A DNA stretch of 64,000 nt from assembly GCF_016026235.1 (NCBI RefSeq), contig NZ_CP065613.1, one strand, 5' to 3'. The position numbers and the translations under genes were made by a program. This stretch comes from Escherichia coli (lineage in GTDB: Bacteria > Pseudomonadota > Gammaproteobacteria > Enterobacterales > Enterobacteriaceae). The notes under the pieces were generated by a model. That model did no database searches. It was not told where the DNA came from and saw only the letters and a list, made by a program, of their open reading frames with translations. Positions 20,983 to 55,305 of this stretch are shown here, in pieces (positions within the stretch are counted from its first letter, which is position 1; the number at the start of each line of letters is the position of its first letter).

Positions 20983-22764
20983 GTGAGCGATATTGTTTAC
21001 CTGAGAATAATCGGTGAGAAGCAGGGCGATATTTCTTCAGGCTGTGGGACGTATGCGTCGGTTGGTAATCGCTGGCAGGTTGGCCATGAAGATGAAATTT
21101 TTGCCTTTGCACTCACCAACGCCATTACCAGTACTGGTAATGGCGTTAATCTACAGGGGCTACAATTTTGCAAACTCATTGATAAAAGCTCACCGCTACT
21201 GTCTAATGCCATCAATCAGAATGAGCGGTTATTTATTGAAATCGATTTGTATCGTATAAATAAAAGCGGGCGCTGGGAACGGTATTATTATATTCAGCTA
21301 AGAAATGCTTCATTAACTGCTATTCATGTAAACATTTCTGACAATAATCTTCCTACCGAATGTGTAACTGTCGATTATCACTACATATTATGTAAACATC
21401 TAATAGCCAATACGGAATTTGACTGGTTGGCCTTTCCTGCTGGCTATAATAGCTTATTTATTCCGCCTAAAAGCCCACCTGCCAGTAATCTTAAGCCTGA
21501 ACCTCTACCAGTTGTTAACCTTCCACTCTCTTCACCAGCGGTTAACCCGGTCTATGCCAAATCCTGTCTGAAGGAGAAGGGATGTACAGATGCTGGAACG
21601 GCAGAAGAACCCGCTGAAAACTTCGGTCAAGTAGCGATTTTTGCTCAGCCAGTGGTTGATGACTGCTGTGGATACCACCATCCCGAGGCTAACGATGTCG
21701 GGCAACCCGCAGAAGCTCAAACCATGCTACTGTTTCCGGGTAGTGTGTTGGCGGCTCAAATATGGGGAAAATGGTCGCTCAGTGGCATACTCAGTGCAAC
21801 CCGCGGCTCTTACATCGGTGCGTTGGCATCTGCTTTGTATATTCCCTCTGCGGGCGAGGGCAGTGCTCGCGTGCTCGGACGTGATGAGTTCTGGTATGAG
21901 GAAGAACTGCGGCAGAAAGCACTAGCAGGCAGTACCGCCACCACCCGGGTACGTTTTTTCTGGGGAACTGATATTCACGGCAAGCCTCAGGTGTATGGTG
22001 TTCATACGGGTGAAGGTACGCCGTATGAAAACGTCCGCGTGGCGAACATGCAGTGGAACGAGCAGACGCAGCGTTATGAATTTACCCCCGCTCACGATGT
22101 CGATGGCCCCCTGATTACCTGGACGCCGGAAAATCCGGAACATGGGAATGTTCCGGGCCATACCGGTAACGACAGGCCGCCGCTGGATCAGCCCACCATT
22201 CTGGTGACGCCGATTCCGGACGGTACAGATACCTATACCACGCCGCCATTCCCGGTTCCTGATCCGAAAGAATTCAACGATTATATTCTGGTTTTTCCGG
22301 CGGGATCCGGTATTAAGCCCATCTATGTTTACCTGAAGGAGGATCCGCGAAAGCTGCCTGGTGTTGTAACAGGGCGCGGCGTCCCGCTTTCATCAGGAAC
22401 TCGCTGGCTGGATATGTCGGTATCCAATAACGGCAACGGCGCGCCAATCCCGGCGCATATTGCTGATAAATTGCGCGGACGGGAGTTTAAAACCTTTGAT
22501 GAGTTTCGCGAGGCGCTGTGGCTGGAGGTGAGTCAGGATCCGGAGTTGATAGCGCAGTTTTCAAGTGGTAACCAAACACGTATAAAACAAGGATTAACCG
22601 CAAAAGCACCTATTGACGGTTGGCATTATGGCCCTAAAGAAATAGTTAAAAAATTCCAGATACATCATCGTGTTGCAATTGAATATGGCGGCAGCGTATA
22701 CGATATTGATAATTTACGAATTGTTACCCCCAGACTACACGATGAGATTCACTACAGGAGATAA
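20983..22764 (+). CDS. Hcp (T6SS tube protein) fused to a C-terminal colicin E9-type HNH DNase domain (Hcp-ET class effector)
   Basis: N-terminal ~165 aa Hcp-like (LRIIGEKQGDISSG, GHEDE, SPLLSNAI, QLRNASLTAIHV); Pro-rich linker; C-terminal ~130 aa alignable with colicin E9 DNase (GAPIPAHIADKLRGREFKTFDEFREALWLEVSQDPEL ... HHRVAIEYGGSVYDIDNLRIVTPRLHDEIH); GTG start in an AT-rich leader. Confidence 0.85.
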   Translation: MSDIVYLRIIGEKQGDISSGCGTYASVGNRWQVGHEDEIFAFALTNAITSTGNGVNLQGLQFCKLIDKSSPLLSNAINQNERLFIEIDLYRINKSGRWERYYYIQLRNASLTAIHVNISDNNLPTECVTVDYHYILCKHLIANTEFDWLAFPAGYNSLFIPPKSPPASNLKPEPLPVVNLPLSSPAVNPVYAKSCLKEKGCTDAGTAEEPAENFGQVAIFAQPVVDDCCGYHHPEANDVGQPAEAQTMLLFPGSVLAAQIWGKWSLSGILSATRGSYIGALASALYIPSAGEGSARVLGRDEFWYEEELRQKALAGSTATTRVRFFWGTDIHGKPQVYGVHTGEGTPYENVRVANMQWNEQTQRYEFTPAHDVDGPLITWTPENPEHGNVPGHTGNDRPPLDQPTILVTPIPDGTDTYTTPPFPVPDPKEFNDYILVFPAGSGIKPIYVYLKEDPRKLPGVVTGRGVPLSSGTRWLDMSVSNNGNGAPIPAHIADKLRGREFKTFDEFREALWLEVSQDPELIAQFSSGNQTRIKQGLTAKAPIDGWHYGPKEIVKKFQIHHRVAIEYGGSVYDIDNLRIVTPRLHDEIHYRR

Positions 22765-22766
22765 AT

Positions 22767-23051
22767 ATGTTTAAAGAAAAGCTCCAGGATTATACCGAGG
22801 ATGAATTTCTTAATTTTTTAGGCGGATTGAGATCATCTATGAAAGATGGAAAATCCTTAAAAGGTAAGGAGCTAGAAATGTACTGGGATTCATTAGTAGA
22901 TCATTTTATTGAAATTACACAGCATCCGTCAGGGAGCGATCTAATTTTCTACCCTAAAAGTCAAGGAGATGATAAGCCTGAAAACATCCTGAAAATTGTC
23001 AAAGAATGGCGGCGTTCACAGGGGTTACCCTTGTTTAAAGACTCTAAATAA
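22767..23051 (+). CDS. Colicin-DNase immunity protein (Im9-like), cognate to the Hcp-DNase
   Basis: 94 aa; DYTEDEFLNFL ... ITQHPSGSDLIFYP ... resembles Im9 (DYTEAEFL ... TEHPSGSDLIYYP); starts 3 nt after the toxin stop. Confidence 0.85.
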   Translation: MFKEKLQDYTEDEFLNFLGGLRSSMKDGKSLKGKELEMYWDSLVDHFIEITQHPSGSDLIFYPKSQGDDKPENILKIVKEWRRSQGLPLFKDSK

Positions 23052-23204
23052 AGTAGATAATAAAACTATATATGGAACATCATCGCATCTGGCTAATGCG
23101 ATGATATTAATGACATAAAATAATAATGTGATTGCTCTTAAAAAACAGGTAAAAATACTGAAGCCTCATTAGGTTATTTTATCATTTTCCCGCTTTTACC
23201 GATA

Positions 23205-23458
23205 CCCTTTGGCTGGAGGTGAGTCAGTATCCGGAGTTGATAGCGCAGTTTTCAAGCGGTAATCAAACACGTATAAAACAAGGATTAATCGCAAAAGCAC
23301 CACTTGAAGGTTGGCATTATGGCACTAAAGAAATCGTTAAAAAATTCCACATGGATCATCGTGTTGCGATTGAATATAGTGGCGGAATTTACGATATTGA
23401 TAATTTAAGGAGGGCACACCTCATTTGCATGATGAAATTTATTACAGGAGATAGTTAA
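23205..23458 (+). pseudogene. Orphan HNH-DNase C-terminal fragment, no Hcp or linker, frameshifted at the 3' end
   Basis: Homology to the primary toxin begins abruptly at WLEVSQYPELIAQFSSGNQTRIKQGL...; the final HDEIYYRR motif is out of frame. Confidence 0.7.
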
Positions 23459-23749
23459 ATGTATAATTTTAAAGATAAAATAGAAGATTACACAGAGCGG
23501 GAATTCATTGAGTTGCTTGGCGAGTTTACAAATCCAACCGGGGATAACGCTCAATTAAAAGGGGAAGAGCTTGACAAATATTGGGATGATCTAGAAGAAC
23601 ATCTTACCAGAATTACACAACATCCGTTGATGAGCGATCTTATCTACTATCCTGCAAAGAAGGGAGATGATGAACCTGAAAACATCCTGAAAATTGTCAA
23701 AGAATGGCGGCGTTCACAGGGGCTACCCTTGTTTAAAGACTCTAAATAA
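23459..23749 (+). CDS. Orphan Im9-like immunity protein (variant 2)
   Basis: 96 aa; divergent N-terminal half, C-terminal PENILKIVKEWRRSQGLPLFKDSK identical to immunity 1. Confidence 0.8.
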   Translation: MYNFKDKIEDYTEREFIELLGEFTNPTGDNAQLKGEELDKYWDDLEEHLTRITQHPLMSDLIYYPAKKGDDEPENILKIVKEWRRSQGLPLFKDSK

Positions 23750-23901
23750 AGTAGATAATAAAACTATATATGGAACATCATCGCGTCTGGCTAATGCGAT
23801 GATGTTAATAACATAAAATAATAATGTGGGTGCTCTTAATAAACAGGTAAAATACTGAAATCTCATTAGGTTATTTTATCAATTTCCCGCTTTCACCGAT
23901 A

Positions 23902-24152
23902 CCCTTTGGCTGGAGGTGAGTCAGTATCCGGAGTTGATAGCGCAGTTTTCAACTGGTAACCAAACACGTATAAAACAAGGATTAATCGCAAAAGCGCCTC
24001 TTGAAGGTTGGCATTATGGATCTAAGGAAATTGTTGAAGAATTCCATATATATCATAGTGTTGCGATTGAATGTGGTGGCGAAATTTATTATATTGATAA
24101 TTAAAGGATTGTTACGTCTCGACTACATGATGAAATTCACTACAGGAGATAA
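23902..24152 (+). pseudogene. Orphan HNH-DNase C-terminal fragment with premature stop (TTA to TAA) before the terminal catalytic His motif
   Basis: WLEVSQYPELIAQFSTGNQTRIKQGLIAKAPLEGWHYGSKEIVEEFHIYHSVAIECGGEIYYIDN-stop, then in-frame RIVTSRLHDEIHYRR. Confidence 0.7.
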
Positions 24153-24448
24153 TGTATATGCATGATTTAAAATATAAAATATATTTTTACACAGAAGGTG
24201 AATTTCTTGAAATGCTTGAGGAGATAGTAAATGCAACTAGCAAAGATAAATCCCTAAAAGGGAAAAAATTAGAAAAATATCTCGATACCTTAGTGGATCA
24301 TTTCATTAAAATTACTGAACATCCTAAAAAGGGAGATCCCATTTTCTATCCTAATTCCCCAGAAGATGGTAAACCTGAAAACATCCTGAAAATCGTCAAA
24401 GAATGGCGGCGTTCGCAAGGATTGCCTTTGTTCAAAGATTCAGAATGA
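24152..24448 (+). CDS. Orphan Im9-like immunity protein (variant 3)
   Basis: 98 aa; conserved C-terminal PENILKIVKEWRRSQGLPLFKDSE, divergent N-terminal half. Confidence 0.8.
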   Translation: MYMHDLKYKIYFYTEGEFLEMLEEIVNATSKDKSLKGKKLEKYLDTLVDHFIKITEHPKKGDPIFYPNSPEDGKPENILKIVKEWRRSQGLPLFKDSE

Positions 24449-39948: not shown

Positions 39949-39992
39949 ATGAGGTGTACTGGCAATAGCGGACACTACCATTTGTTCTTTTT

Positions 39993-40811
39993 TTAAGCAG
40001 CCATCTGATGATATTTTTCCCTGAAGGCTGCCGGGGAGATATTCCCCAGACGAGAGTGACGACGCTGACGATTGTAGAAAATCTCAATGTATTCCCGTAT
40101 TACTGAGATGGCCTCATTCCGGCTCTTAAAACGATAGTGGCTCAGGCTCTCATTTTTCAGCGTTCCCCAGAAGCTTTCCATCGGAGCGTTGTCGTAACAG
40201 TTACCTTTACGCGACATTGATGTTTTCAGACCAGACTGCTCCTGTATGACCCGGTAATCGTATGCGCAGTACTGTGAACCTCGATCGGAGTGGTGGATTA
40301 GCCCGGCAGGTGGGCGCTGGCTCCTGAGCGCCATAAACAGGGCTTTACCTGTCAGCTCTTTTGTCATGCGCTCTCCCATGGCGTAGCCGACAATTTCGCA
40401 CGTATAAACATCTTTGATGCCAGCGAGGTACAACCATCCCTCCTGTGTGGCAACATACGTCAGGTCCGCCACCCAGACCTGATTTGGTGCTGTAGGAGCG
40501 AACGTCTGGTTCAGCAGATTTGGCGCAACTGGCAGATTGTGGTTCGAGTTCGTAGTCGCTCTGAACTTGCGTTTCTGCTTACAGCGTAGCCTTAGCTCCT
40601 TACGAAGACGTGCCAGTCGGTCACGACCAACGATGATGCCATTCTCTGCCAGCTCCGTCTGGAGCCGCCGGGTTCCATATGTTTCGCGAGTGCGGATATG
40701 TGCCACCTTAATCTCCAGTTTTAGCCGCTCATCACTTTGTTTTCTGTCTGAGGGTTCATGCTGTACCCAGTTGTAATAACCGCTCCTGGATACACCAAAT
40801 ACCCGACACAT
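39993..40811 (-). CDS. IS3-family transposase OrfB (DDE)
   Basis: 272 aa rve-domain ORF. Confidence 0.85.
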   Translation of the reverse strand: MCRVFGVSRSGYYNWVQHEPSDRKQSDERLKLEIKVAHIRTRETYGTRRLQTELAENGIIVGRDRLARLRKELRLRCKQKRKFRATTNSNHNLPVAPNLLNQTFAPTAPNQVWVADLTYVATQEGWLYLAGIKDVYTCEIVGYAMGERMTKELTGKALFMALRSQRPPAGLIHHSDRGSQYCAYDYRVIQEQSGLKTSMSRKGNCYDNAPMESFWGTLKNESLSHYRFKSRNEAISVIREYIEIFYNRQRRHSRLGNISPAAFREKYHQMAA

Positions 40812-40846
40812 CGCTTCAATGGGAAATTGTTGTCGCCATTGTTCGA

Positions 40847-41149
40847 TTAACGCGTATTTTTCAGCGACTCCTGTGCAAAATACGCTGTTGCTTTTTTTAA
40901 TATATCTCGCTCAAGGCGAGCTTCATTTAACGCCTTACGCAGTTGCAGAATTTCAGATTCCAGTTCAGCCACCGTGCGGGAACCAGGAGTACCGAGCCCT
41001 TTTCTGGCGGCGGTAACCCATTGTCCTAAAGTGCCTTCAGGAAGGGATAATCGGGAAGCGCCTTCACTGATCGAAAGTTGATTTTCAAGAACCGTTCTGA
41101 CAGCTTCGGCTTTGAACTCTTTAGAGTAACGTTGGGTTTTTCTGCTCAT
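40847..41149 (-). CDS. IS3-family transposase OrfA (HTH)
   Basis: 100 aa MSRKTQRYSKEFKAEAVRTVLENQLSISEGASRL... Confidence 0.85.
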   Translation of the reverse strand: MSRKTQRYSKEFKAEAVRTVLENQLSISEGASRLSLPEGTLGQWVTAARKGLGTPGSRTVAELESEILQLRKALNEARLERDILKKATAYFAQESLKNTR

Positions 41150-41210
41150 TATTAGCTCCTTCTGATGCCATTCTATTTCAGGAAGGAGTGTCCGTTAAAC
41201 TCAGGCTACC

Positions 41211-41363
41211 TCAATAAGTGTTTGATCCATTCTTTGGGACTCCTGGCTGATTAAGTATGTCGATAAGGCGTTTCCATCCGTCACGTAATTTACGGGTGAT
41301 TCGTTCAAGTAAAGATTCGGAAGGGCAGCCAGCAACAGGCCACCCTGCAATGGCATATTGCAT
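41211..41363 (-). CDS. cIII: cIII (FtsH inhibitor), last 4 codons replaced by a stop inside the IS inverted repeat
   Basis: MQYAIAGWPVAGCPSESLLERITRKLRDGWKRLIDILNQPGVPKNGSNTY-stop; lambda cIII continues GYPD. Confidence 0.8.
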   Translation of the reverse strand: MQYAIAGWPVAGCPSESLLERITRKLRDGWKRLIDILNQPGVPKNGSNTY

Positions 41364-41715: not shown

Positions 41716-42042
41716 TCAAATAAGTGGTTTGCTGCCTAATTTCATTTTCTGGCGACCAACACAAGTCACACCCATTTCACTGCGTGGCTTGCTGTACCAT
41801 GTGCGCTGATTCTTGCGCTCAATACGTTGCAGGTTGCTTTCAATCTGTTCGTGGTATTCAGCCAGCACTGTAAGGTCTATCGGATTCAGCGCGCTTTCTA
41901 CTCGTGATTTCGGTTTGCGATTCAGCGAGAGAATAGGGCGGTTAACTGGTTTTGCGCTTACCCCAACCAACAGGGGATTTGCTGCTTTCCATTGAGCCTG
42001 TTTCTCTGCGCGACGTTCGCGGCGGCGTGTTTGTGCATCCAT
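41716..42042 (-). CDS. N: Antitermination protein N (lambda-type)
   Basis: 107 aa MDAQTRRRERRAEKQAQWKAANPLLVGVSAKPVNRPILSL... with arginine-rich motif; the ORF track adds 30 upstream codons. Confidence 0.9.
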   Translation of the reverse strand: MDAQTRRRERRAEKQAQWKAANPLLVGVSAKPVNRPILSLNRKPKSRVESALNPIDLTVLAEYHEQIESNLQRIERKNQRTWYSKPRSEMGVTCVGRQKMKLGSKPLI

Positions 42043-42342: not shown

Positions 42343-43768
42343 TAATGCCGATCAGTTAAGGATCAGTTGACCGATCCAGTGGCTGTGTAAGAATCCGGAA
42401 ACGCTCACTTGTTTCCGGATTTTTTTATGCACATTGGACAGGCTCTTGATCTGGTATCCCGTTACGATTCTCTGCGTAACCCACTGACTTCTCTGGGGGA
42501 TTACCTCGACCCCGAACTCATCTCTCGTTGCCTTGCCGAATCAGGTACTGTAACGCTACGCAAGCGCCGTCTTCCCCTCGAAATGATGGTCTGGTGTATT
42601 GTTGGCATGGCGCTTGAGCGTAAAGAACCTCTTCACCAGATTGTGAATCGCCTGGACATCATGCTGCCGGGCAATCGCCCCTTCGTTGCCCCCAGTGCCG
42701 TTATTCAGGCCCGCCAGCGCCTGGGAAGTGAGGCTGTCCGCCGCGTGTTCACGAAAACAGCGCAGCTCTGGCATAACGCCACGCCGCATCCGCACTGGTG
42801 CGGCCTGACCCTGCTGGCCATCGATGGTGTGTTCTGGCGCACACCGGATACACCAGAGAACGATGCAGCCTTCCCCCGCCAGACACATGCCGGGAACCCG
42901 GCGCTCTACCCGCAGGTCAAAATGGTCTGCCAGATGGAACTGACCAGCCATCTGCTGACGGCTGCAGCCTTCGGCACGATGAAGAACAGCGAAAATGAGC
43001 TTGCTGAGCAACTTATAGAACAAACCGGCGATAACACTCTGACGTTAATGGATAAAGGTTATTACTCACTGGGACTGTTAAATGCCTGGAGCCTGGCGGG
43101 AGAACACCGCCACTGGATGATACCTCTCAGAAAGGGAGCGCAATATGAAGAGCTCAGAAAACTGGGTAAAGGCGATCATCTGGTGAAGCTGAAAACCAGC
43201 CCGCAGGCACGAAAAAAGTGGCCGGGACTGGGAAATGAAGTGACAGCCCGCCTGCTGACCGTGACGCGCAAAGGAAAAGTCTGCCATCTGCTGACGTCGA
43301 TGACGGACGCCATGCGCTTCCCCGGAGGAGAAATGGCGGATCTGTACAGTCATCGCTGGGAAATCGAACTGGGATACAGGGAGATAAAACAGACGATGCA
43401 ACTGAGCAGGCTGACGCTGAGAAGTAAAAAGCCGGAGCTTGTGGAGCAAGAGCTGTGGGGTGTCTTACTGGCTTATAATCTGGTGAGATATCAGATGATT
43501 AAAATGGCGGAACATCTGAAAGGTTACTGGCCGAATCAACTGAGTTTCTCAGAATCATGCGGAATGGTGATGAGAATGCTGATGACATTGCAGGGCGCTT
43601 CACCGGGACGTATACCGGAGCTGATGCGCGATCTTGCAAGTATGGGACAACTTGTGAAATTACCGACGAGAAGGGGAAGGGCCTTCCCGAGAGTGGTAAA
43701 GGAGAGGCCCTGGAAATACCCCACAGCCCCGAAAAAGAGCCAGTCAGTTGCTTAACTGACTGGCATTA
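42343..43768 (+). mobile_element. IS4 (1426 bp) with 12-bp target duplication gacactaaggtc
   Basis: Terminal inverted repeats taatgccgatcagttaagga.../...ttaactgactggcatta; identical 12-mer at 42331-42342 and 43769-43780. Confidence 0.88.
42409..43755 (+). CDS. IS4 transposase
   Basis: 448 aa DDE transposase ORF filling the element. Confidence 0.88.
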
Positions 43769-43815: not shown

Positions 43816-44550
43816 TTAACTAAATGTCTCTTCAGGCCACTGGCTGGCGATAACTTTCCCCACAACGGAACAACTCTCATTGCATGGGATCATTGGGTAT
43901 TGTGGGTTTAGTGGCTGTAGAAACACCTGACCACTATCCCTGATCAGTTTCTTGAAAGTAAATTCATCACCACCAAGTCTGGCTATGCAGAAATCGCCGG
44001 GCTCAACAGCTTGCTCAGGGTCAACCAGAATTAACATCCCGTCAGGAAAACTGGGTTTGGAACCTGTTGGTGCGGTCATGGAATTACCTTCAACTTCAAG
44101 CCAAAACGCACAATCACTGGCTTTTTTGGTTGTGCTGACCCATCTCTCCGCATCACCTTTGGTAAAGGTTCTAAGCTCAGGCGAGAACATCCCGGCCTGA
44201 ACATGAGAAAAAACAGGGTACTCATATTGTTTTTTAACGGGGGCAGATGAGTATTCGCCAACAGGTGAAAATGTACCGTCGTGGTTGAATGAGACGTTAT
44301 CAATACCAAGGTATTTAAACACCACACCAATCTCGTCAAGAGATGGATGACGAGATCCGCGCAACCAGTGACCAATTCCACCCTGCGTCATACCAAGCTC
44401 TTCAGCTAACTTCTCTTGAGTTATGCCGAGCTCTTTCATTCTGGATCTAGCCAGTTCATACCATTTCATTTTCATATCCTTATTATTACGCTCTGTACTA
44501 AAACCATCCATGCACAAGATGTATTTTTTGTTTGCATTCCAAAAGTACAT
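43816..44550 (-). CDS. cI: CI-type prophage repressor (HTH_XRE N-domain plus S24 LexA-like C-domain)
   Basis: 244 aa; C-terminal half matches lambda cI ([34 protein letters not shown] ... [10 protein letters not shown]) while the N-terminal DNA-binding domain is unrelated to lambda cI. Confidence 0.85.
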
Positions 44551-49338: not shown

Positions 49339-49644
49339 TTAAGGATGAGGCTGAATTTCTTCAGGTCGGTATTTTGTTGAGAGATGAGAGATGTCAACTT
49401 CTCTCTCTGCTTTTTCAAGACTCCATGCCATCTGAAGACGAATCCATGAGGCCGGAGTTCCTCCAAGAACGGCGGCGAGACGAACAGCCATTTCAGGAGA
49501 GATTGCCGCATTTCCTGAAACCAGTCGCTGAACAGTGGAAGGCGCAACATCAAGCGCTCTTGCCAGCTCTCTGATCCCAATATTCTGATCTTCCAGAATA
49601 TCCGCAATAATTTCTCCTGGATGAGGGGGGTTAAACATCGTCAT
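49339..49644 (-). CDS. higA: HigA-type antitoxin (HTH_XRE)
   Basis: 101 aa; HTH region IGIRELARALDVAPSTVQRLVSG; immediately downstream of and overlapping the toxin gene. Confidence 0.8.
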   Translation of the reverse strand: MTMFNPPHPGEIIADILEDQNIGIRELARALDVAPSTVQRLVSGNAAISPEMAVRLAAVLGGTPASWIRLQMAWSLEKAEREVDISHLSTKYRPEEIQPHP

Positions 49645-49922
49645 TAATGGTAATCCTCGTAGTTAAGAATATAAGCGTCACCGTCACGAAACTCGAAGGT
49701 GATCCTCCAGTTACCGGAGACGGAGACAGACCACGTATCGGCCCTGTCTCCTTGCAACTGGTGCAGCCTGTAACCGGCAAGGTTAATATCATCAATGATT
49801 TCGGCTTGATCTATCACCTGAAGGCGCATTCTAAGGCGTTTAACATGATTGGGATTTACGCCTGATGCACTTCCAGTTTCAAAGAAACGTTGAAGTCCTT
49901 TGTGTTTCCAGCTTTTTATCAT
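49644..49922 (-). CDS. higB: HigB-type toxin (RelE/ParE superfamily mRNA interferase)
   Basis: 92 aa MIKSWKHKGLQRFFETGSASGVNPNHVKRL...NWRITFEFRDGDAYILNYEDYH, typical HigB. Confidence 0.8.
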   Translation of the reverse strand: MIKSWKHKGLQRFFETGSASGVNPNHVKRLRMRLQVIDQAEIIDDINLAGYRLHQLQGDRADTWSVSVSGNWRITFEFRDGDAYILNYEDYH

Positions 49923-50258
49923 GTTTGTTTCCTGTTGCGTTACGCGAATCATTATAGAGTGTGTTGTGTCATTCGCAACCGTTGGTTTGACAAAAACACA
50001 TATCCGGGGCTATATTCCCTGAACGCCAGCAAATCTGGCGTCGGGATTGGCGTCCCGGATATCGAAACGGTGCATAACCGCGCTGGCGGTTTTTTTATGC
50101 GCTAAGCACAGTCACATTCGCGATTTATGGTGGGCTGTGTGGGGGAGTTGAGAGACTCGCCGGATGTTTCGACCGGTTACGCCAACCCTGCACAGTTCAC
50201 CACCCAGCGATTGGCGTCGCAGGTGGTGAGTTAAAAACCATCGAAACGCGAGGTCGTT

Positions 50259-50945
50259 ATGACTGTTCAGATTTCTGTCAAAAACCTTTCCCCTGTTACC
50301 TATAACCAGATTCCGGTAATCACAACTGAGTTGCTTGCCCGCCTTTATGGAACAGAAACAATCCGTATACAGCAGAATCACCATGAAAATAAATCTCGGT
50401 TTATTGAGGGAAAGCACTTCTTTAAAGCTGTTGGTGATGAACTCAGAAATTTGCGACTAGTTTTAAACGAGTCGCAAAATGAGGTGAAAATCTCTCCCAA
50501 AACCCGCTCGCTCATCCTCTGGACAGAACGAGGCGCAGCCCGCCACGCAAAAATGCTCGAAACCGATCAGGCGTGGGAAGTGTTCGAAAAACTGGAAGAC
50601 TGCTATTTCAGCCAGACTTCGAAAAGCGCAGGTCATCACGAGAAGAAAACCAGCGAGCTTTCTGCAAAAGATGCAAACAGTCTGGTATGGTTGTGGGATT
50701 ATGCCAACCGCTCACAGGCATTATTCCGCGAACTGTATCCGGCGCTAAGACAAATTCAGTCTAACTATTCCGGCAGATGCCACGACTACGGTCATGAGTT
50801 CTCGTATGTTATCGGAATGGCGAGAGACGTTTTAATCAATCACACACGAGATGTTGATATTAATGAGCCAGACGGACCAACGAATCTTTCTGCATGGGTA
50901 AGACTTAAGAACAAAGAATTACCTCCTTCACTACATCACTACTGA
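50259..50945 (+). CDS. ORF6N-domain antirepressor-like protein
   Basis: 228 aa; N-terminal ORF6N-like segment ([36 protein letters not shown]). Confidence 0.55.
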
Positions 50946-51013
50946 CAGATTGCCAACGCAACGACCCAGCTTCGGCTGGGTTTTTTATTGCTGAATTTTC
51001 AATATGAGAGGAC

Positions 51014-51274
51014 ATGACAATGAACGAGCTGATAAATAGCAACGCCATTAAAATGACCAGCATTGAAATCGCTGAGTTGGTGGGTAAGCGTCATGACAAT
51101 GTGAAACGTACCATCGAAACGCTGGTTAAAAGTGGAGTTATCCGGCTTCCTCAAATTGAGGTTTCCGAAAGAATCAATAACTTAGGGTTCAATGTTCAGT
51201 ACGAGCATTACGTCTTCGAAGGCGAACAAGGTAAGCGCGACAGCATTATTGTCGTTGAAGGAGGTGTTGCATGA
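51014..51274 (+). CDS. Rha-family phage regulatory protein (short)
   Basis: 86 aa with Rha-like motif TSIEIAELVGKRHDNVKRTIETL. Confidence 0.55.
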   Translation: MTMNELINSNAIKMTSIEIAELVGKRHDNVKRTIETLVKSGVIRLPQIEVSERINNLGFNVQYEHYVFEGEQGKRDSIIVVEGGVA

Positions 51275-52040
51275 ATGCCGTAATTATTGCCAACGCAGAA
51301 ATCGTGCCGATTGAGTTTAATGGCGAGCGTGTTGTTACGTATCAAATGATTGCTGATATTCACGGGGTTCCAGTAGCCACTATTCAAAATGGCTATGCGC
51401 GAAACTCTGAGTATTTCATAGACAGGGAAGATACATATTTTATTGATTTTCATGAAAATACCTTTAGAAGGGGTTTTGAAATTCCTCCTCGTGGCATGCG
51501 AGTTTTCACTGAATCAGGCTATTTGATGCTGGTTAAAACCCTGCGCGACGAGACGGCGTGGAGAGTGCAACGTGAGCTTGTTCGCAATTATTTTCGTGGC
51601 CAAAAGAAGATAAGTCAGCCTTGCCCGACTTCACAAACCCTGCTGAAGCCGCCAGAGCGTGGGCAAACGAATATGAGCAGAAAGTGAAGCTGGAGCAACA
51701 ACTCGCGATTGCCGCACCTAAAGTTGAGTTTGCCGATCGCGTTGGCGAGGCCAGCGGAATTTTGATTGGAAACTTTGCAAAGGTTGTTGGTATTGGCCCA
51801 AACAAACTGTTTGCGTGGATGCGTGATCACAAAATCCTTATTGCTTCAGGTTCCCGGCGCAATGTGCCAATGCAGGAATATATGGATCGCGGCTATTTCA
51901 CAGTGAAAGAAACAGCGGTCAACACAAATCACGGAATACAGATATCGTTCACCACAAAAATCACCGGGCGTGGTCAACAGTGGCTGACCAGAAAGCTGCT
52001 CGATAACGGAATGCTGAAAGTAACAGGGGAGGCTGCATGA
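51271..52040 (+). pseudogene. Antirepressor (N-terminal DNA-binding plus KilA-C domain) split by a frameshift near 51600
   Basis: Overlapping ORFs 51271-51687 and 51621-52040 in different frames; second part ...DFTNPAEAARAWANEYEQKVKLEQQL... is KilA-C-like. Confidence 0.6.
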
Positions 52041-52399
52041 ATGAGTACAGATTCACGCTTCCATACCCGCCGTCGCTGAACACCTACTGGCGAAGACGGG
52101 GAAGCCGATACTACATCAGCGATAAAGGCCAGAAATACCGAAAAGACGTTCAGCAAATCATCCGCCAACTCAAGTTAGATATTTTCACCAAAGCACGACT
52201 CCGCATCAAAGTCATCGCAGACGTTCCAGACTCCCGCCGCCGCGACCTCGACAACATCCTGAAAGGTTTACTCGACTCCCTTATCCACGCCGGATTTGCG
52301 GAAGACGACGAGCAATTCGATGACATTCGCGTAATTCGTGGCGTGAAAGTACCAGGCGGACGGCTTGGAATAAAAATCACCGAACTGGAGAACGCATGA
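52037..52399 (+). CDS. rusA: RusA-family Holliday junction resolvase
   Basis: 120 aa; LPYPPSLNTYWRRRG ... RRRDLDNILKGLLDSL ... GGRLGIKITELE. Confidence 0.85.
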   Translation: MNEYRFTLPYPPSLNTYWRRRGSRYYISDKGQKYRKDVQQIIRQLKLDIFTKARLRIKVIADVPDSRRRDLDNILKGLLDSLIHAGFAEDDEQFDDIRVIRGVKVPGGRLGIKITELENA

Positions 52400-53162: not shown

Positions 53163-53237
53163 GGGTCAGTCGTATAAAGGTCATTACGGAAGGCTGTTAA
53201 CCTTCTTATCGTGGTTCGAGTCCACGCTGTCCCGCCA
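53163..53237 (+). tRNA. tRNA-like sequence, anticodon GUU (Asn), imperfect acceptor and D stems; possibly degenerate
   Basis: Anticodon arm gaagg-CTGTTAA-ccttc, T arm cgtgg-TTCGAGT-ccacg, 3' CCA; one mismatch in the acceptor stem, weak D stem. Confidence 0.35.
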
Positions 53238-53242
53238 AATAT

Positions 53243-53318
53243 GCTGGTTTAGCTCCAATGGTAGAGCAGTCGCCTTGTAAGCGAATGGGTAGCGGTTCAA
53301 GTCCGTTAACCAGCACCA
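53243..53318 (+). tRNA. tRNA, anticodon UGU (Thr), 76 nt with encoded CCA
   Basis: 7-bp acceptor stem GCTGGTT/AACCAGC, D arm GCTC-CAATGGTA-GAGC, anticodon loop CTTGTAA, T arm AGCGG-TTCAAGT-CCGTT, discriminator A, CCA. Confidence 0.6.
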
Positions 53319-54783: not shown

Positions 54784-55305
54784 ATGAATATCGTTCCACT
54801 GAATTACAAAGGCGAACCTATCCGCTTCAATACTGATGGCTGGATTAATGCCACTGATATTGCAAAACGTTTCGGGAAGCGTCTGGATCACTGGTTGTCC
54901 AACGCTGAAACTCTCGAATACGTTAGAGCTCTGGATGAGGTTTATTCAGGTGAACCATCGAAAATTCTACATACCCGTGATTCCGGGTATGTAAAAACAA
55001 GCAAGGCACGAAAGGACAGGGGCGGCGGAACATGGCAGCATCCAAAGTTATCAGTTGCCTTTGCAAGATGGTGCGATCCGAAATTCTCCGTATGGTGCGA
55101 CCTGCACATTGATAGTCTGCTTCGCGGTGAACTGACTGAGCAGCAGAAATATGAGCAAGCATGTCGCATTCGCGATGACCGGAAATCAAAAGCCAGCAAT
55201 GGGGCAAGAGAGATGGCTCGCTGGCGATGGGATAAGCCGGTTATTGAAGCAAATGTCGAGTACTGGCGCGAGCAACTGCAGTTGACTCTCGATATCGCGT
55301 GCTGA
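54784..55305 (+). CDS. KilA-N domain protein
   Basis: 173 aa; N-terminal segment with KilA-N-like features. Confidence 0.55.
   Translation: MNIVPLNYKGEPIRFNTDGWINATDIAKRFGKRLDHWLSNAETLEYVRALDEVYSGEPSKILHTRDSGYVKTSKARKDRGGGTWQHPKLSVAFARWCDPKFSVWCDLHIDSLLRGELTEQQKYEQACRIRDDRKSKASNGAREMARWRWDKPVIEANVEYWREQLQLTLDIAC

Follow-up and report, generated by a model that had tools for sequence, protein, structure and literature searches.

The window analysed here, a 64,000-nucleotide stretch of Escherichia coli DNA taken as a whole, contains a lambda-like prophage in which three antirepressor-like open reading frames (ORFs) occupy positions 50259-52040, between ninE/higBA and rusA/ninH/Q (Table 1). An initial annotation made from the sequence had placed three such genes here, in the nin region, and this held: the ORFs, named g1, g2 and g3 below, are preceded by genes for NinB, Dam and HigBA and followed by genes for RusA, NinH and Q. 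A Pfam search gave domain matches far past chance. ORF6N (PF10543; cut-off 27.8 bits) scored 75.3 bits in g1 and 42.9 bits in g3a, the first of the two frames of g3; P22_AR_C (PF10548) scored 98.6 bits in g1 (profile positions 1-73 of 73) and 38.6 bits in an AntA-type gene elsewhere in the prophage; and ANT/KilAC (PF03374) scored 116.4 bits in g3b (1-106 of 108), all above gathering. PHROGs placed g1, g3a and g3b in anti-repressor families. The ORF6N and KilAC labels of the initial annotation were right as far as they went; g1 additionally carries P22_AR_C, and ORF6N recurs in the N-terminal half of the third gene.

Table 1 Features of the antirepressor-like cluster and of related loci in the window.
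Feature	Position (strand)	Product	Evidence or remark
Promoter-like site, sigma-70 type	49987..50016 (+)		TTGACA-18-TATATT, 11/12; aligns with Gifsy-1 isrK promoter
IsrK-like short RNA/leader	50023..50096 (+)		Rfam RF01394, terminator scan, complementarity
C4-type antisense RNA	50123..50207 (+)		RF01695, 68.7 bits (gathering 45), model positions 1-87 of 87
Leader ORF	50127..50234 (+)	35 aa	Gifsy-1 orf45 position (P1 icd position)
Second target pair (a2, b2)	50211..50247 (+)
g1	50259..50945 (+)	228 aa	ORF6N 4.6e-21; P22_AR_C 2.1e-28
Intrinsic-terminator-like hairpin	50963..50992 (+)		8 pairs + T-run
g2	51020..51274 (+); alternative start 51014	84 aa (86 aa from 51014)	Partial Phage_pRha match; stop overlaps g3 start (ATGA)
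ORF6N cassette in roi	51258..51675 (+)		Brings Shine-Dalgarno GAAGGAGG, start codon, ORF6N domain, linker
g3	51271..52040 (+)	256 aa in relatives	ORF6N::KilAC chimera; here a pseudogene in two frames
g3a	51271..51687 (+)	138 aa	ORF6N 6.3e-11
g3b	51621..52040 (+)	139 aa	ANT/KilAC 9.6e-34
Frameshift site	51602..51605 (+)		A4 here, A5 in relatives; codon 112-113
Possible stand-alone KilAC ORF	51684..52040 (+)	118 aa	In-frame GTG 51684-51686; speculative
xis	33924..34142 (-)
AntA-type gene	34227..34850 (-)	207 aa	AntA 2e-26 + P22_AR_C; adjoins xis
Second c4-type leader cassette	34860..35092 (-)		Rfam match, complementarity, covariation
Fifth antirepressor-like gene	35172..35894 (-)		phrog_1726 'anti-repressor' 2e-97; no Pfam domain
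cI-like repressor	43816..44550 (-)		HTH_3 + Peptidase_S24
KilA-N domain protein	54784..55305 (+)		Downstream of lysis genes

We observed a leader with two structured RNAs upstream of g1. The IsrK-like RNA that follows the promoter-like site matches its Rfam model at 68.3 bits (gathering 50; model positions 1-77 of 77), contains the target sites a1 (TTGGCGT, 50047-50053) and b1 (TCGAAAC, 50062-50068), and ends in a hairpin and T-run at 50076-50096. The isrK and c4-a1b1 models of Rfam both fall on 50010-50096, the latter with a marginal 45.3 bits, just under its gathering threshold of 46.7. The C4-type RNA contains the pairing segments b' (GTTTCGA, 50166-50172) and a' (ACGCCAA, 50179-50185), which over 7 nt each are exactly complementary to both copies of the targets, that is to a1/b1 and to the second pair a2 (TTGGCGT, 50211-50217) and b2 (TCGAAAC, 50241-50247). 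This last site abuts the Shine-Dalgarno sequence of g1, GAGG. Across three phages (the present one, JLK-2012 and Gifsy-1) the sites change in concert, a1/a'/a2 reading TTGGCGT versus TTAGCAC and b1/b'/b2 likewise TCGAAAC versus TCACC. The leader ORF overlaps the C4-like RNA, includes a2 and starts at an aligned ATGGTGGG; it is shorter than its counterpart orf45, and its stop lies 24 nt upstream of g1. The leader as a whole aligns at the DNA level to both JLK-2012 and the isrK locus of Gifsy-1, and IsrK/C4 leaders are present in 277 phage records. The RNA switches before g1 and before the AntA-type gene, which went unnoticed in the initial annotation, are the most informative features found here.

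The g1 protein joins ORF6N (residues 12-99) to P22_AR_C (residues 128-200). Residues 1-123 are 65% identical to Gifsy-1 AnrP, the C-terminal part belongs with Ant of Phi24B/P22 type and shows 89% identity to the C-terminus of JLK-2012 Ant, and the exact protein occurs on 31 contigs. Judged by these alignments, g1 is the payload of a complete cassette of the Gifsy-1 isrK-orf45-anrP and P1 c4 type. In Salmonella, IsrK activates translation of orf45-anrP and AnrP induces Gifsy-1 (Hershko-Shalev et al. 2016, PMC4825925). The DNA-level alignment with that locus takes in the promoter, the IsrK RNA, the terminator, the start of the leader ORF and, for the downstream gene, its Shine-Dalgarno sequence and ATG; AnrP and g1 also both have ORF6N. 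However, the Gifsy-1 cassette lies downstream of Q, whereas the present one lies upstream of it in the nin region; AnrP lacks the P22_AR_C C-terminal domain of g1; the leader ORF measures 45 aa in Gifsy-1 and 35 aa here; the b-site is TCACC rather than TCGAAAC; and no RNA resembling the Gifsy-1 isrJ was detected at the present locus. A second parallel is immI of P1/P7 (c4 - icd - ant). The C4 model is matched here at full length, two RNA segments likewise have complementary sequences, as an ordered target pair, on each side of the RNA gene, those downstream falling at the ribosome-binding region of the genes under control, and an antirepressor-type gene follows. Unlike immI, the present cassette belongs to a lambdoid rather than a P1-like phage, encodes an antirepressor of different domain make-up, has in the icd position a 35-aa ORF that is unrelated in appearance, and carries its upstream target pair within a separately terminated IsrK-like RNA. 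The Ant of P22 (immI; Arc, Mnt, sar RNA) has P22_AR_C in common with g1 and the AntA-type gene, but g1 lacks P22_AR_N and has control of the c4/IsrK type instead. The ORF list contains no Arc-like ORF between higB and g1, and no Arc or Mnt genes adjoin g1; JLK-2012, in contrast, has both P22_AR_N and an Arc-like gene.

Antirepressors set the awakening of prophages, toxin-carrying ones included, and their control therefore matters for virulence and gene transfer. We propose that transcripts from the near-consensus promoter would stop mostly at the IsrK-like terminator, and that read-through transcripts would carry the C4-like RNA. Pairing at a2/b2 would keep g1 untranslated, while release would come from competition by the short RNA combined with leader-ORF translation (a role suggested by the Gifsy-1 study, PMC4825925); the strong terminator behind g1 would close the cassette. 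Against this model stands the fact that the logic of P1 (repression) and that of Gifsy-1 (activation) assign opposite effects to the short RNA. Once made, the g1 protein most probably targets a cI-type repressor, binding and inactivating it, and the cI-like repressor of this prophage is the presumed target of any antirepressor. Inactivation would lead to RecA-independent induction, possibly of other prophages too, and cross-talk of this kind, which the initial annotation had raised, is plausible by analogy (PMC3121763). Control by LexA, as in the antirepressors Gifsy GfoA/GfhA and 186 Tum, was considered and rejected: a scan of the window found no LexA box (CTGT-N8-ACAG) upstream of any antirepressor gene, and the sole match, at chance level, falls inside the 35172-35894 coding sequence.

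Next to this cassette, g2 and g3 have the appearance of one gene taken apart. The likely start of g2 is the second ATG, at 51020, which is the start called in related contigs. Its product matches residues 1-79 of JLK-2012 Roi with 78% identity and residues 1-80 of HK022 Roi with 66%, and DNA homology to roi around it spans 50994-51257. With Phage_pRha (PF09669; cut-off 29.9 bits) g2 scored 30.3 bits and full-length Roi 30.4 bits, the g2 match being partial (profile positions 1-27 of 91); PGAP labels g2 in relatives as a Rha-family pseudogene, and its database matches are mostly partial sequences at contig ends. The 'Rha-like' short gene of the initial annotation is a real ORF whose identity is that of a roi 5' fragment. 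Homology to roi exists on both sides, at 66-78% identity to Roi residues 1-80 in g2 and at 89-93% in the C-terminal half of g3, the upper figure applying to the HK022 Roi counterpart. Roi elsewhere is a single polypeptide of ~240 aa, with a Rha-like N-terminal part and KilAC, which is not so here, where the ORF6N cassette separates the halves. In the alignment to JLK-2012 roi, homology is lost at ~51257 and comes back at ~51676-51690; a mosaic boundary near 51237 is also visible against a related locus (L017).

These alignments identify g2 as the 5' end of roi, left orphaned, and g3 as the KilAC half of roi fused to an inserted ORF6N cassette. Both would derive from one ancestral roi gene, in which a cassette with its own ribosome-binding site took the place of codons ~80-110 and left behind the 84-aa g2 and a new ORF6N::KilAC protein, making the locus a snapshot of in-place N-terminal domain replacement. 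The ORF6N genes that relatives carry near xis yielded no donor, the closest of them being 26% identical. No own promoter was detected for g2/g3, which would be expressed solely after derepression, by way of antiterminated early-right transcripts. The g2 ORF is intact in two alleles with a mutual identity of 59% and is always translationally coupled to g3. The displaced fragment may have been retained as a small functional gene, although the diverged 84-aa allele (P0084) fits selection as well as it fits recombination at the conserved FEGEQGKRDSI segment.

The ant-roi pair of lambdoid and Stx phages (Phi24B, JLK-2012, BP-4795), together with HK022 Roi, occupies the same position, from ninE to ninG/rusA-type genes, and g2 and the C-terminus of g3 jointly cover the Roi of JLK-2012 and HK022 at 66-93% identity. 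The present locus differs in that Phi24B-type Ant has P22_AR_N in the place of the ORF6N of g1, the ORF6N cassette has turned roi into two ORFs, and g3 is frameshifted. We consider it probable that the region is an ant-roi gene segment in the nin region of a decaying lambda-like prophage, with a three-part anatomy of an RNA-gated g1 cassette, g2 and g3 derived from roi, and a frameshift in g3. To speak of three antirepressors overstates a cluster that holds three antirepressor-like ORFs but corresponds to the conserved lambdoid ant-roi pair. Every component of the region is of an already known kind, and what they make up is ordinary biology at an early stage of decay.

A serious alternative is that the proteins of g2/g3, perhaps with that of g1, act not as antirepressors but as regulators of the Roi/AriS kind, which bind DNA or modulate SOS; we rate this at somewhat under an even chance. 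In this reading KilAC would act by damping RecA/SOS or influencing lytic growth, with the variable N-terminal domain directed at phage DNA. Published work describes Roi-type and KilAC proteins as regulators that bind DNA or modulate SOS, not as proven antirepressors (PMC3430580, PMC9043618), and the C-terminal half of g3 is nearly that of HK022 Roi. In Listeria AriS (Azulay et al. 2022, PMC9043618), which like the intact g3 allele combines a variable N-terminal domain with a C-terminal ANT/KilAC, the KilAC domain inhibits SOS, and AntA, Bro-N and pRha alternate as N-terminal domains much as they do here. However, AriS is of Firmicutes origin and shares the domain family alone; g3 has ORF6N at its N-terminus and an enterobacterial host, and in this genome its KilAC half is out of frame, with the two domains in different frames. 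The Phi24B Ant enhances induction; its deletion left superinfection immunity unaffected and did no more than weaken late-promoter firing (PMC3064807). For g1 the AnrP precedent, with prophage induction and antQ activation (PMC4825925), favours an antirepressor role, as does control of the c4 type, by which P1 governs a true antirepressor. Within the cluster, g1 alone has a close, experimentally studied antirepressor relative, namely AnrP, with the whole IsrK leader conserved by alignment. We prefer an antirepressor role for g1. At least two things go under the label 'antirepressor' in the nin regions of lambdoid phages, an RNA-gated candidate for a true antirepressor of the AnrP/Ant type and putative regulators of the Roi/KilAC type.

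The lesion in g3 can be stated exactly. The initial annotation had described a third gene split into two frames, and comparison of 51260-52045 with the intact gene of E. coli FDAARGOS_943 showed a single missing A and otherwise 100% identity over 786 nt. The site falls in the linker between ORF6N (residues 14-89) and KilAC (residues 142-244). The reading frame is kept in all 14 intact relatives checked, and the A5 run is present at all nine related loci that cover the site and in the three genomes that carry the linker among 5426 complete E. coli genomes, none of which has the A4 allele. At four more diverged loci the 256-aa product is likewise intact, and the intact 256-aa protein occurs on 164 contigs. 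The exact 138-aa and 139-aa products are missing from a collection of ~15 billion proteins; this weighs little, because the source genome is probably not in that collection, from which several other ORFs unique to this genome are likewise missing. We propose that one A was lost from the run, so that the ORF6N domain would still be made with a 27-aa nonsense tail and KilAC would be essentially lost. The deletion is most likely a recent real mutation in an already defective prophage, and of little wider importance, one more lesion in a crippled element.

The initial annotation had offered decay or a sequencing error, which is the correct pair of options. Were it a homopolymer error in sequencing or assembly, the true genome would have A5 and an intact 256-aa ORF6N::KilAC protein. 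We regard this as unlikely, though it has points in its favour: the A4 allele is private, shared by no relative or database entry; g3 is otherwise identical to the intact allele; both frameshifts in the prophage, in the antirepressor-like gene and in the integrase gene, are one-base losses at short homopolymers; and in an NCTC long-read assembly (P0015) the linker has a different single-base indel, 50 nt further downstream, typical of homopolymer error. The host part of the window speaks against it. Over 32.8 kb it differs from a 99.8% identical genome by four indels and no coding frameshift; none breaks a gene or lies in a short homopolymer, although the segment has 114 runs of at least 5 nt. 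The two one-base differences lie in runs of 8-9 nt, and the run is the longer one in the window, contrary to what a deletion bias would give. As a gauge of assembly quality these indels are informative, not decisive. The prophage itself also shows independent signs of real decay, with insertions of an IS600 copy and of an IS4-family element and a displaced end that joins a truncated yacH and not ybhC. Its integrase gene is frameshifted too, through the loss of one base in a C run; on these grounds real decay is the more likely origin of the g3 frameshift.

That the split gene is still useful, either through a -1 slip on CAA_AAG that restores the full length or through halves that act separately, seems very improbable. 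The frame relations on the sequence confirm that such a slip would recreate the wild-type ...GQKEDK... exactly, and A_AAG is a slip-prone tetranucleotide in E. coli; however, the sequence shows no complete heptameric slippery site, and re-pairing from CAA to CCA would be poor. Separate halves would consist of ORF6N alone and of KilAC alone, reinitiated at the GTG codon, which lies 9 nt before the Pfam ANT start and overlaps the g3a stop (TGA, 51685-51687) as GTGA. An identical 118-aa product is annotated in an NCTC genome with a different frameshift (STH71906.1), and the KilAC domain is active by itself in Listeria AriS (PMC9043618), but the Shine-Dalgarno-like sequence of this GTG is weak, none of the 14 intact relatives has the frameshift, and any expression would be low and accidental. 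A programmed ribosomal frameshift was rejected, since the shift is common to no relative (nine loci, three complete genomes and four diverged loci) and is conserved in none of the 14 intact ones.

As the initial annotation had noted, an AntA-type gene adjoins xis, and we observed a second c4-type leader before it. Its structured RNA, at 34978-34890 on the minus strand, matches Rfam sRNA-Xcc1 (RF02221) at 68.3 bits (gathering 53). On the same strand, a promoter-like TTGACA (35092-35087) is followed by the upstream sites a1/b1, TGAACAC (35049-35043) and TGCAAAG (35038-35032), and then by a hairpin and T-run; of the a2/b2 pair, TGCAAAG at 34866-34860 overlaps the Shine-Dalgarno sequence. Two related leaders (L011 and L012) have covarying sites. 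The region supplies exact base-pairing sites for two c4-type switches, and their recognition sequences do not overlap, being ACGCCAA/GTTTCGA for the nin cassette and CTTTGCA/GTGTTCA for the xis cassette. From phage to phage the a and b sites seem to change partners, the present nin cassette combining the a-site of Gifsy-1 with the b-site of JLK-2012. We raise, as a rather doubtful joint proposal that includes the retention of g2 as a working gene, that this one lambda-like prophage might hold two separate RNA-gated antirepressor cassettes whose RNAs form a trans 'immunity code'. If the short RNAs act in trans, such a combinatorial code would determine which co-resident prophages silence each other's antirepressors, and it would sit on top of the protein repressor switch. 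The count of four antirepressor-like genes in the initial annotation was too low, as the genes at 35172-35894 (-) and 54784-55305 (+) add to the superfamily, the latter encoding a KilA-N protein of the same domain-shuffling kind.

We identified four plus-strand open reading frames in 50259-52040 by ORF calling, and Pfam and PHROGs assigned antirepressor-family domains to the cluster. This confirms the grouping of an ORF6N protein, a Rha-like protein and a KilAC antirepressor described in the initial annotation, whose interpretation is partly supported. Pfam recognized ORF6N in the first gene (g1), Phage_pRha at threshold level in the second (g2) and ANT/KilAC in g3b, one of two overlapping frames (g3a, g3b) of the split third gene (g3); PHROGs placed g1, g3a and g3b in anti-repressor families. 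Since the flanks encode NinB, Dam, a HigB/HigA pair, RusA, NinH and Q, the cluster lies in the nin region of a lambda-like prophage. All components belong to known kinds: a lambdoid ant-roi pair, IsrK/C4-type RNA control, domain shuffling and prophage decay. The analysis adds three points: exactly how g3 is broken, how g2 and g3 arose, and the presence of two RNA-gated cassettes whose covarying recognition sequences differ. Between ninE and the ant cassette, the opposite strand carries the inserted HigB-like toxin/HTH antitoxin pair, and a promoter-like site backs onto the promoter of the g1 cassette. Q and the holin gene are separated by two tRNA genes, where a related prophage has tRNA-Asn and tRNA-Thr.

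Features of the antirepressor cluster, the two RNA leaders and the surrounding prophage
Feature	Position	Strand	Details
yacH	32103-32800		truncated at ~32794
Integrase, lambda-type	32877-33946	-	Arm-binding fragment 33551-33946, catalytic fragment 32877-33569
xis	33924-34142		
AntA gene	34227-34850	-	AntA 2e-26, P22_AR_C
AntA leader	34860-35092	-	
Structured RNA	34890-34978	-	Rfam sRNA-Xcc1 68.3 bits, gathering 53; contains CTTTGCA and GTGTTCA
Second TGCAAAG copy		-	overlaps AntA-gene Shine-Dalgarno sequence
TGAACAC and TGCAAAG, upstream		-	AntA leader; then hairpin and T-run
Promoter-like TTGACA...TATATT	35092	-	AntA leader
phrog_1726 'anti-repressor' gene	35172-35894	-	240 aa; PHROG 2e-97; no Pfam domain match
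IS600-like element	39950-41214		early-left operon
N	41716-42040	-	
IS4-family transposase gene	42409-43755	+	
cI-like repressor gene	43816-44550	-	HTH, S24
HigB-like/HTH pair	49339-49952	-	
Promoter-like site	49978-49951		
g1 cassette promoter	49987-50016		TTGACA-18-TATATT, near consensus, 7 nt ahead of isrK match
c4-a1b1	50010-50061	+	Rfam 45.3 bits, below gathering 46.7
isrK	50023-50096	+	Rfam 68.3 bits, gathering 50
a1	50047-50053	+	TTGGCGT, within IsrK-like RNA
b1	50062-50068	+	TCGAAAC, within IsrK-like RNA
C4 antisense RNA	50123-50207	+	Rfam 68.7 bits, gathering 45
C4-like RNA segment	50166-50172		GTTTCGA
C4-like RNA segment	50179-50185		ACGCCAA
a2	50211-50217	+	TTGGCGT
b2	50241-50247	+	TCGAAAC, immediately 5' of the GAGG in the g1 ribosome-binding site
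g1	50259-50945	+	228 aa; ORF6N 4.6e-21, P22_AR_C 2.1e-28
Terminator-like hairpin, strong	50963-50982		3' of g1
g2	51014-51274	+	86 aa; Phage_pRha 30.3 bits (cut-off 29.9), only first 27 of 91 profile positions
g3a	51271-51687	+	138 aa; ORF6N 6.3e-11
g3b	51621-52040	+	139 aa, overlapping frame; ANT/KilAC 9.6e-34
Two tRNA genes	53163-53315	+	
KilA-N protein gene	54784-55305	+	173 aa

The C-terminal 104 residues of g1 are 89% identical to the C-terminus of phage JLK-2012 Ant, which is of the Phi24B type, an enhancer of induction whose C-terminal domain is common with P22 Ant (PMC3064807, PMC3430580). Over its first 123 residues, g1 shares 65% identity with Gifsy-1 STM2616 (AnrP), which likewise carries ORF6N. 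We consider the region upstream of g1, unexamined in the initial annotation, more telling than protein homology. An Rfam search of this 300-nt region returned isrK and C4 matches above their gathering scores and a c4-a1b1 match below its own, all on the plus strand. The isrK match terminates in a hairpin and T-run, and the whole leader aligns with the isrK-orf45-anrP locus of Gifsy-1 and with JLK-2012. Two segments of the C4-like RNA each have two exact complements in the same order, one pair (a1/b1) upstream and one (a2/b2) downstream, which is the a1/b1-c4(a',b')-a2/b2 layout of the P1 immI operon. The sites covary: JLK-2012 has TTAGCAC at all three a-sites (as its complement in the RNA) and Gifsy-1 has TCACC at all three b-sites. 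Similar leaders occur in 277 phage records, mostly of Stx phages. In P1, C4 pairing at a2/b2 blocks icd-ant expression, as summarized in an APSE phage preprint (doi 10.1101/2020.03.17.996009); in Gifsy-1, the short IsrK RNA activates orf45 translation and, by coupling, that of anrP, and AnrP then induces the prophage (PMC4825925). The RNA leader would keep g1 silent, and released g1 would inactivate a cI-type repressor such as the resident HTH-S24 protein. No promoter for g2 and g3 was detected beyond the g1 terminator, and both genes would be expressed only after derepression.

An AntA-type gene had also been placed next to xis, and we found it adjoining xis, behind a minus-strand leader with the architecture of the g1 cassette. 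In a related leader, that of strain Z1323HEC0108, the corresponding sites are TCAAAAC and GCGATAG, and both the RNA and the ribosome-binding site have changed to match. The APSE study describes c4 and isrK RNAs beside ant-type genes and an ORF6N gene preceded by sRNA-Xcc1 (doi 10.1101/2020.03.17.996009). No LexA box was found upstream of these antirepressor-like genes. The product of the phrog_1726 gene shares 62% identity, over its C-terminal half, with an ORF6N protein of E. coli FDAARGOS_943. Across loci, the xis-proximal site pairs the same C-terminal modules with different N-terminal domains, in agreement with a report that KilAC proteins alternate in their N-terminal domains (PMC9043618). 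A KilA-N protein of the shuffled regulator superfamily is encoded just 3' of the lysis genes.

The counterpart locus of JLK-2012 carries ant (334 aa, P22_AR_N and P22_AR_C), roi (240 aa, Rha-like and KilAC) and ninG. We observed that g2 is 78% identical to residues 1-79 of JLK-2012 Roi and 66% identical to residues 1-80 of HK022 Roi, while the intact form of g3 matches Roi at its other end (residues 125-256 against JLK-2012 residues 109-240, 89%; residues 126-256 against HK022, 93%). DNA homology to roi runs from 50994 to ~51257, is lost, and is regained at ~51676-51690; the ~420-nt intervening segment supplies its own Shine-Dalgarno sequence (GAAGGAGG), start codon and ORF6N domain, and the g2 stop overlaps the g3 start as ATGA. 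Because Roi homology is present in g2 and in the C-terminal half of g3 and interrupted between them, we conclude that an ORF6N cassette replaced the middle of roi, leaving an orphaned 84-aa 5' fragment (g2) and creating a chimeric ORF6N::KilAC gene (g3). In relatives, g2 is labelled a Rha-family pseudogene by the NCBI pipeline. The g2+g3 unit also occurs with a second g2 allele, which keeps the length and ending of g2 but shares only 59% identity with it; the adjacent g3 is 97-100% identical, and a mosaic boundary falls near 51237. This fits either g2 having been kept as a small gene or recombination within a conserved segment. In another nin region (related contig L017, 2002-2469), a DUF559/restriction-endonuclease-like C-terminus follows the 32 N-terminal residues of Roi/g2 (MNELINGNAIKMTSIEIAELVGKRHDNVKRTI) in one fusion protein, so the roi 5' end looks like a recurrent recombination joint.

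The split reported near 51600 was traced to a single base. The closest relative, FDAARGOS_943, carries an intact 771-nt gene (WP_001344365.1, 'phage antirepressor Ant', 256 aa) that differs from 51260-52045 only in reading CC-AAAAA-GAAG for CC-AAAA-GAAG; thus, one A was lost from an A5 run (51602-51605). As the intact protein has ORF6N at residues 14-89 and KilAC at 142-244, codon 112-113, where the frame shifts, belongs to the interdomain linker, and ORF6N is left whole in g3a with a 27-residue out-of-frame tail. All nine related loci covering the site have A5. The linker occurs in only 3 of 5426 complete E. coli genomes, each spanning 102 nt for the 101-nt query and therefore carrying A5; four more diverged loci encode an intact 256-aa protein, and the intact protein itself occurs on 164 E. 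coli and Shigella contigs. The 138-aa g3a product was not found among ~15 billion proteins, and the A4 allele appears private.

The initial annotation had left decay and sequencing error side by side. We consider real decay probable, and retain a sequencing or assembly error as the less likely alternative. Two facts favour an error: each of the two prophage frameshifts is the loss of one base from a homopolymer, that of the integrase lying at a C run near 33617 (against two intact relatives), and a long-read NCTC assembly has a different single-base indel in the same g3 linker. Real decay is favoured by the other lesions of the same prophage, the split integrase among them. An IS600-like element, 99.4% identical to FDAARGOS_943 copies, sits where a related prophage has kil, an IS4-family transposase gene separates N from the cI-like repressor gene, and the int-proximal end is joined directly to truncated yacH. 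In relatives, this prophage adjoins ybhC and yacH is intact beside lpdA; the junction reflects a rearranged chromosome or a misjoined assembly. Over the 32.8-kb host segment, which matches FDAARGOS_943 at 99.82% identity, there are only four indels; none breaks a gene, although the segment holds 114 runs of at least 5 nt, and two lie in 8-9-nt runs that are longer in the window.

As the sequence stands, the KilAC half would be lost in this genome, with two possible exceptions, both speculative. It might be reinitiated at a GTG overlapping the stop (51684-51687), and another genome has an annotated 118-aa ORF identical to the resulting one; or a rare -1 slip on CAA_AAG might restore the wild-type sequence. 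A programmed frameshift is rejected, since related loci keep A5 or the intact product and the 138-aa product is absent; it is thus either an error or a private change of very recent origin. Instead of serving as an antirepressor, intact g3 may behave like Roi or AriS.

Relative to FDAARGOS_943, where gspE is annotated as a pseudogene, the window carries 28 inserted nt in the hofC/gspE region and lacks 12 nt of a GPH symporter gene (12056 and 17895). Elsewhere in the host region (20983-24448, plus strand), a tssD (Hcp)-toxin fusion gene precedes three tandemly repeated bacteriocin-immunity paralogues that share ~80% identity with one another.
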